From Escherichia coli (GTDB lineage Bacteria; Pseudomonadota; Gammaproteobacteria; Enterobacterales; Enterobacteriaceae), in NCBI RefSeq assembly GCF_017348835.2, contig NZ_CP071375.1: a stretch of 64,000 nt of DNA; one strand, written 5' to 3'. The position numbers and the translations under genes were made by a program. The notes under the pieces are model-generated. The model saw only the letters and a list, made by a program, of their open reading frames with translations. It made no database searches and had not been told where the DNA came from. Within the stretch, counting starts at the first letter, position 1. Each line of letters starts with the position of its first letter. Of this stretch, positions 9,066-10,712 are shown piece by piece.

Positions 9066-10712
9066 ATGAATGGCGCACAGTGGGTGGTACATGCGTTGCG
9101 GGCACAGGGTGTGAACACCGTTTTCGGTTATCCGGGTGGCGCAATTATGCCGGTTTACGATGCATTGTATGACGGCGGCGTGGAGCACTTGCTGTGCCGA
9201 CATGAGCAGGGTGCGGCAATGGCGGCTATCGGTTATGCCCGTGCTACCGGCAAAACTGGCGTATGTATCGCCACGTCTGGTCCGGGCGCAACCAACCTGA
9301 TAACCGGGCTTGCGGACGCACTGTTAGATTCTATCCCTGTTGTTGCCATCACCGGTCAAGTGTCCGCACCGTTTATCGGCACTGACGCATTTCAGGAAGT
9401 GGATGTCCTGGGATTGTCGTTAGCCTGTACTAAGCACAGCTTCCTGGTGCAGTCGCTGGAAGAGTTGCCGCGCATCATGGCTGAAGCATTCGACGTTGCC
9501 AGCTCAGGTCGTCCTGGTCCGGTTCTGGTCGATATCCCAAAAGATATCCAGTTAGCCAGCGGCGACCTGGAACCGTGGTTCACCACCGTTGAAAACGAAG
9601 TGACTTTCCCACATGCCGAAGTTGAGCAAGCGCGCCAGATGCTGGCAAAAGCGCAAAAACCGATGCTGTACGTTGGTGGTGGCGTGGGTATGGCGCAGGC
9701 AGTTCCTGCTTTACGAGAATTTCTCGCTACCACAAAAATGCCTGCCACCTGCACGCTGAAAGGGCTGGGCGCAGTTGAAGCAGATTATCCGTACTATCTG
9801 GGCATGCTGGGAATGCATGGCACCAAAGCGGCGAACTTCGCGGTGCAGGAGTGCGACTTGCTGATCGCCGTGGGTGCACGTTTTGATGACCGGGTGACCG
9901 GCAAACTGAACACCTTCGCACCACACGCCAGTGTTATCCATATGGATATCGACCCGGCAGAAATGAACAAGCTGCGTCAGGCACATGTGGCATTACAAGG
10001 TGATTTAAATGCTCTGTTACCAGCATTACAGCAGCCGTTAAATATCAATGACTGGCAGCAACACTGCGCGCAGCTGCGTGATGAACATGCCTGGTGTTAC
10101 GACCATCCCGGTGACGCTATCTACGCGCCGTTGTTGTTAAAACAACTGTCGGATCGTAAACCTGCGGATTGCGTTGTGACCACAGATGTGGGGCAGCATC
10201 AGATGTGGGCCGCGCAGCACATCGCACACACTCGCCCGGAAAATTTCATTACCTCCAGCGGCTTAGGCACCATGGGTTTTGGTTTACCGGCGGCGGTTGG
10301 CGCACAAGTCGCGCGACCGAACGATACCGTTGTCTGTATCTCCGGTGACGGCTCTTTCATGATGAATGTACAAGAGCTGGGCACCGTAAAACGCAAGCAG
10401 TTACCGTTGAAAATCGTCTTACTCGATAACCAACGGTTAGGGATGGTTCGACAATGGCAGCAACTGTTTTTCCAGGAACGATACAGCGAAACCACCCTTA
10501 CCGATAACCCCGATTTCCTCATGTTAGCCAGCGCCTTCGGCATCCCTGGCCAACACATCACCCGTAAAGACCAGGTTGAAGCGGCACTCGACACCATGCT
10601 GAACAGTGATGGGCCATACCTGCTTCATGTCTCAATCGACGAACTTGAGAACGTCTGGCCGCTGGTGCCGCCTGGCGCCAGTAATTCAGAAATGTTGGAG
10701 AAATTATCATGA
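9066..10712 (+). CDS. ilvG: Acetolactate synthase II large subunit, uninterrupted 548-aa frame
   Basis: Full-length ORF in track with TPP-enzyme motifs; no frameshift. Confidence 0.9.

Follow-up and report, generated by a model that had tools for sequence, protein, structure and literature searches.

Does an uninterrupted ilvG in Escherichia coli simply mark a natural strain, or could it belong to a K-12 derivative in which the gene has been repaired? The ilvG frameshift of K-12, together with what follows from it, has been in the textbooks since 1981, and the question was raised by a window of 64,000 nucleotides (the whole stretch of DNA analyzed here, to which all positions refer), for which an initial annotation had reported a continuous ilvG frame and proposed "a non-K-12 strain or an ilvG-restored background." We conclude, with a probability of about 0.97, that positions 9066-10712 hold the wild-type, ancestral ilvG allele of a natural non-K-12 E. 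coli, whose nearest relatives are PE164 and F2_81. The part of the proposal that invoked a non-K-12 strain therefore stands. The part that invoked a restored K-12 does not, given 35 substitutions relative to K-12, the identity to PE164 and F2_81, and a gene length of 1647 bp.

The ilvG frame and its operon

Both the list of open reading frames and the translation place a single ATG-initiated frame at 9066..10712 on the + strand, comprising 548 sense codons followed by the terminal stop, with no internal stops. The chance that 548 random codons would be free of stops is approximately 4e-12. Against NF006524, the NCBIfam equivalog for the "acetolactate synthase 2 catalytic subunit," the product scores 1074.6 bits (cut-off 738), and residues 1-547 align in one stretch to profile positions 1-547 of 548, in agreement with the continuity over 548 codons reported earlier. 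The ends of the gene were confirmed by RefSeq, which annotates the identical DNA of PE164 as ilvG with the same start and end.

Three Pfam domains, all above their gathering scores, cover the protein: TPP_enzyme_N (PF02776) at residues 1-115, TPP_enzyme_M (PF00205) at 186-321, and TPP_enzyme_C (PF02775) at 374-522. The catalytic-region motif RHEQGA lies at residues 45-50 and includes the catalytic glutamate E47, while the ThDP/Mg2+ motif GDGSFMMN begins at residue 427 and is followed by LLDNQ (D454-N455). A further conserved segment of 12 residues is located at residue 399. On the basis of the reading frame, NF006524, the Pfam domains, and these motifs, the gene was identified as an intact ilvG encoding the catalytic subunit of AHAS II. 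This subunit is ThDP- and FAD-dependent, and IlvG together with IlvM condenses pyruvate with either pyruvate or 2-ketobutyrate, the first common step in the synthesis of valine, leucine, and isoleucine.

IlvG can also be aligned from end to end with AHAS catalytic subunits of known structure, including IlvB of AHAS I (PDB 6LPI; E = 5e-162) and Arabidopsis AHAS (E = 1e-152), and E47, the ThDP/Mg2+ motif, and the segment at 399 are all kept relative to these two structures. The alignment with IlvB and with plant and yeast AHAS structures covers residues 2-544 and places the proteins in the same fold family, although they are paralogues. AHAS I is valine-sensitive and has IlvN as its partner, whereas AHAS II is valine-insensitive and partners with IlvM, as is well established (PMC8605374).

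The operon is complete, in the order ilvL-ilvX-ilvG-ilvM-ilvE-ilvD-ilvA, and its synteny is that of PE164 and of the K-12 annotation. The leader peptide ilvL (8828..8926, +; 32 aa) scores 81.9 bits against NF007744 (cut-off 59), is the same as in K-12, and is annotated as ilvL in PE164. Downstream of it lies the attenuator terminator (8947..8982, +), a G+C-rich hairpin followed by a T8 run that is base-for-base the same as in K-12 and has an RNA folding energy of -23.3 kcal/mol (z = -4.5). A simple terminator scan did not flag this attenuator on the + strand because its stem contains one internal mismatch, but direct folding shows the hairpin. The attenuator also lies inside a match to Rfam RF02744 ("soft rot Enterobacteriaceae Rev39 5' UTR") at 8757-9046 (+; 157 bits), a cis-regulatory family. 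As the matched region in E. coli is no more than the ilvL leader with its attenuator, RF02744 seems to describe the ilv attenuator by a different name. Just upstream of ilvG, translation reveals the 16-aa small frame ilvX (9013..9063, +), annotated under that name in both PE164 and K-12. The leader, attenuator, ilvX, and ribosome-binding region, up to the ilvG start codon, are identical in the window and K-12.

Downstream, ilvM (10709..10972, +), the AHAS II small subunit gene, scores 133.9 bits against NF008362 (cut-off 68). Its ATG overlaps the ilvG TGA in the tetranucleotide ATGA at 10709-10712, a junction read directly from the sequence. The genes ilvE (10992-11921), ilvD (11986-13836), and ilvA (13839-15383), all on the + strand, were identified from the list of open reading frames and the RefSeq annotation of PE164, and the divergent ilvY and ilvC lie 3' of ilvA. 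The wider neighborhood follows the canonical E. coli order, with an rrn operon, hdfR, maoP, and yifB, and further on rep, rho, the wec cluster, uvrD, and corA. Ordinary Rfam matches elsewhere in the window include the GlmZ sRNA (44849-45055, +), the trxA 5' UTR thermometer (24099-24198, +), and StyR-44 in the rRNA spacer (2094-2202, +).

The K-12 deletion and the ancestral allele

In a global alignment, ilvG of K-12 MG1655 and that of the window are 97.9% identical, with 35 substitutions, and the only gap is one of 2 bp at gene nt 977-978. The missing dinucleotide is an AT at 10042-10043 of the window, with placement ambiguous within 10042-10045 (+), where the alignment with NC_000913.3 shows that the window retains AAATATC and codons N326-I327. 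Thus, the window reads CCG TTA AAT ATC AAT GAC TGG (P-L-N-I-N-D-W), whereas K-12 reads CCG TTA AAT CAA TGA. The frameshift that the initial annotation had mentioned for K-12 therefore corresponds to this 2-bp loss, after which the K-12 frame stops with a TGA at codon 328 and the product ends at residue 327. As this stop falls after the central domain, the entire C-terminal ThDP-binding domain is gone. Consistent with the deletion, the K-12 pseudogene (b4488, NC_000913.3 3950560-3952204) is 1645 bp long, compared to 1647 bp in the window.

An intact frame could also arise from a compensating frameshift elsewhere in the gene, and this candidate was rejected. The whole-gene alignment with K-12 contains no second-site indel, and the only length difference is at the K-12 deletion site; thus, the open frame of the window does not stem from a compensating second-site change. 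The alignment that had been suggested for the frameshift site accordingly returned the ancestral sequence. The remaining codon differences are mostly synonymous (30 synonymous and 5 non-synonymous between the window and K-12, 65 and 9 between the window and a B2 strain), a pattern that indicates purifying selection on ilvG, as judged from these codon counts. When the K-12 frame is restored in silico, its codon 494 encodes His, at a position where the seven E. coli representatives and the cross-genus alignment, both described below, have an invariant Pro; this His494 may reflect drift after ilvG was inactivated.

The distribution of the two alleles was surveyed across 5,426 complete E. coli genomes using short junction-spanning probes, designed such that no 28-mer is common to both alleles. 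The K-12 deletion was found in 340 of the 5,426. Sixty genomes sampled across the ranking of these 340 carriers have K-12-type names, sources, or sizes (4.46-4.94 Mb), and include MG1655, DH1, BW25113, ER-series, XL1-Blue, O16:H48, and transconjugant-type strains. Judging from these 60, the deletion-carrying genomes look like K-12 laboratory derivatives.

The window-type probe detected the AT-containing allele in 3,505 genomes, and a B2-type probe that accommodates an adjacent N328D SNP detected it in a further 1,237. These two sets are disjoint by design, so the allele is present in at least 4,742 of the 5,426 genomes. An O157-type probe contributed 328 additional exact matches, bringing the total to approximately 5,070; because this probe set partly overlaps the window-type set, its contribution was limited to these exact matches, and an exact union count is impossible. 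About 15 genomes fall outside both allele counts. That the window-type probe alone matched only 3,505 genomes is due to SNPs within 28 nt of the site (B2 N328D and O157-type) and not to other indels.

Gene lengths agree with the probe counts. Of 60 ilvG matches taken as a spread sample, four are K-12-type records with a span of 1645 bp, and all of the non-K-12 records extend over 1647 bp. Seven divergent E. coli (ATCC 25922, an O25:H4 strain, BL21, O157:H7, and three others) all carry a gene of 1647 bp encoding 548 aa and containing the AT. Wild-type ilvG genes of other E. coli, among them those of PE164 (WP_053884188.1), O157:H7, BL21, and ATCC 25922, share the operon position as well as the length and the AT with the window, and differ from the window gene, if at all, by point substitutions only. 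The DNA of the window gene is identical to that of PE164 and F2_81 and 95-99% identical to all other E. coli ilvG genes.

The same register extends to other genera. IlvG proteins of Citrobacter koseri, C. sedlakii, C. amalonaticus, C. braakii, C. portucalensis, Salmonella enterica, and three Enterobacter species are 548 aa long and share 91-94% identity. In the 12-sequence cross-genus alignment, none of the 548 columns contains a gap and I327 and W330 are invariant, and the Salmonella enterica, Citrobacter, and Enterobacter proteins differ from that of the window by species-level substitutions only. Given this shared register across E. coli lineages and other genera, the allele of the window is ancestral and that of K-12 derived. 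An intact ilvG is the species norm and K-12 is the exception, a biology already known for decades. The description of the source as a "non-reference E. coli" is correct in that the strain is not K-12, but the framing slightly overstates the interest of the gene.

Very few non-K-12 genomes carry a damaged ilvG. One of them, which is also among the approximately 15 genomes outside both allele counts, is NCCP12480 (NZ_CP068680.1), in which only 58% of ilvG matches and the remnant adjoins ilvA, which suggests an internal ilvG-to-ilvA deletion.

Strain background and competing explanations

Over its first 25 kb, the window shares 99.9% identity with the pig isolates PE164 and F2_81, while all other genomes in the collection reach at most 98.9%. 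The assemblies of these two isolates match the window with 100% identity over 2.3 kb, ilvG included. Apart from its own lineage, the gene is closest to the alleles of O157:H7, O55:H7, and O145:H28 (~99.0-99.1%). The lineage is rare in the collection, as only PE164 and F2_81 reach at least 99% over the 25 kb.

Several other loci of the window differ from K-12. The extra gene near uvrD mentioned in the initial annotation is real: it lies at 58641-59543 (-), between uvrD and yigE, and encodes a 300-aa protein of the SAM hydroxide adenosyltransferase / SAM-dependent halogenase family (PF01887 and PF20257). It was detected in 2,413 of the 5,426 complete genomes and is missing from K-12, in which uvrD and yigE are direct neighbors. 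Between rep and ppiC, an intact 149-aa PemK/MazF-like toxin frame is present at 18421-18870 (-); its counterpart in K-12 is the pseudogene yifN, which has lost 1 bp at nt 210. In contrast to ilvG, yigF (61752-62132, -) is intact in K-12 and interrupted by a stop codon (W15*) in the window and PE164. A fragment of a DKNYY-family pseudogene lies between lptM and cyaY (52626-52804, -), and is annotated in PE164 as frameshifted and partial.

Could the window nevertheless come from a K-12 derivative with ilvG restored, either a spontaneous valine-resistant revertant or an engineered ilvG+ strain? The frame is open exactly where that of K-12 is broken, and ilvG revertants are common in laboratory evolution (PMC8605374). 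However, repair of the frame leaves the 35 further substitutions (2.1% divergence from K-12) unaccounted for, and the flanking 25 kb groups with PE164 and F2_81 to the exclusion of every other genome in the collection. The gene near uvrD, the intact yifN homologue, and the nonsense mutation in yigF are likewise non-K-12 content. The manner of reversion differs as well: in laboratory-evolved, valine-resistant K-12, the frame was restored through loss of either T or G from the premature TGA, and the AT was not regained (PMC8605374). Such a -1 deletion at the TGA gives a revertant gene of 1644 bp, compared to the 1647 bp of the window. We therefore regard a restored K-12 as extremely improbable. 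Another alternative is that the frame appears open through an error of sequencing or assembly, such as a homopolymer or dinucleotide miscall at AAATATC, as this site is a short AT repeat and hence a context prone to indel errors. Against this, the AT-containing sequence recurs in thousands of independently sequenced complete genomes, and two independent assemblies agree with the window at every base over the 2.3 kb; the probability of such an error is negligible.

The substitution at residue 344 and the predicted valine response

A natural allele with an open frame might still encode an altered enzyme. Codon 344 of IlvG (10095-10097) specifies Cys in the window, PE164, and F2_81, whereas the seven other E. 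coli representatives and the 11 other sequences of the cross-genus alignment (one further E. coli and 10 from other genera) all have Arg. It could be proposed that R344C alters AHAS II in this rare pig-associated lineage, through stability, redox sensitivity conferred by a new surface cysteine, or the interaction with IlvM, but from the sequence comparison such an effect seems very doubtful. The stronger form of the idea, in which the frame is intact and R344C impairs or alters the enzyme such that normal AHAS II activity is lacking, draws on the presence of Arg in every other enterobacterial IlvG examined and on the sharing of Cys by the window and PE164. Set against it, residue 344 falls in the linker that joins the central domain (Pfam boundary at 321) to the C-terminal one (boundary at 374), and solved relatives have Pro (E. 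coli IlvB) or Ser (Arabidopsis AHAS) at the aligned position. As the position is not conserved in IlvB and plant AHAS, a functional effect of R344C is unlikely. In addition, all catalytic and cofactor motifs of IlvG are intact, the Cys allele is fixed in at least three genomes of the lineage (the window, PE164, and F2_81), and the remainder of the gene shows the mostly synonymous pattern. Loss of normal activity through R344C thus has very little probability, and we retain the reading of a wild-type allele.

The physiological meaning of this allele can be predicted by comparison with characterized strains. In K-12, the frameshift leads to a premature UGA, and the lesion is polar on ilvGMEDA (PMC8605374). 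K-12 is valine-sensitive through the lack of AHAS II, an enzyme that is valine-resistant but inactive in this strain (PMC8605374; PMC6483228), and restoration of the ilvG frame confers valine resistance, AHAS II being valine-insensitive (PMC8605374). In B strains, where ilvG is intact, ilvGMEDA is expressed more highly and growth occurs on valine dipeptides (PMC3446290).

In the source strain of the window, expression of ilvG is under the control of the ilvL leader and attenuator, and the start of IlvM is coupled translationally to ilvG via the ATGA overlap. The intact IlvG, together with IlvM, would be expected from established knowledge to form a valine-insensitive AHAS II. Since AHAS II is not subject to feedback inhibition by valine, growth on minimal medium supplemented with valine would be expected, and we predict that the source strain should grow in the presence of this amino acid. 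Unbroken translation of ilvG would also remove the K-12-type polarity on ilvMEDA, so that these genes should be expressed without a frameshift-induced reduction; like the growth phenotype, this is a prediction from gene content.

Overall, an intact ilvG has little importance beyond strain typing, where it marks a natural E. coli rather than K-12. The useful result is quantitative: the deletion that defines the K-12 allele was found in 340 of 5,426 complete genomes, which appear to be K-12 derivatives, and the 548-codon frame of the window is common to other genera.
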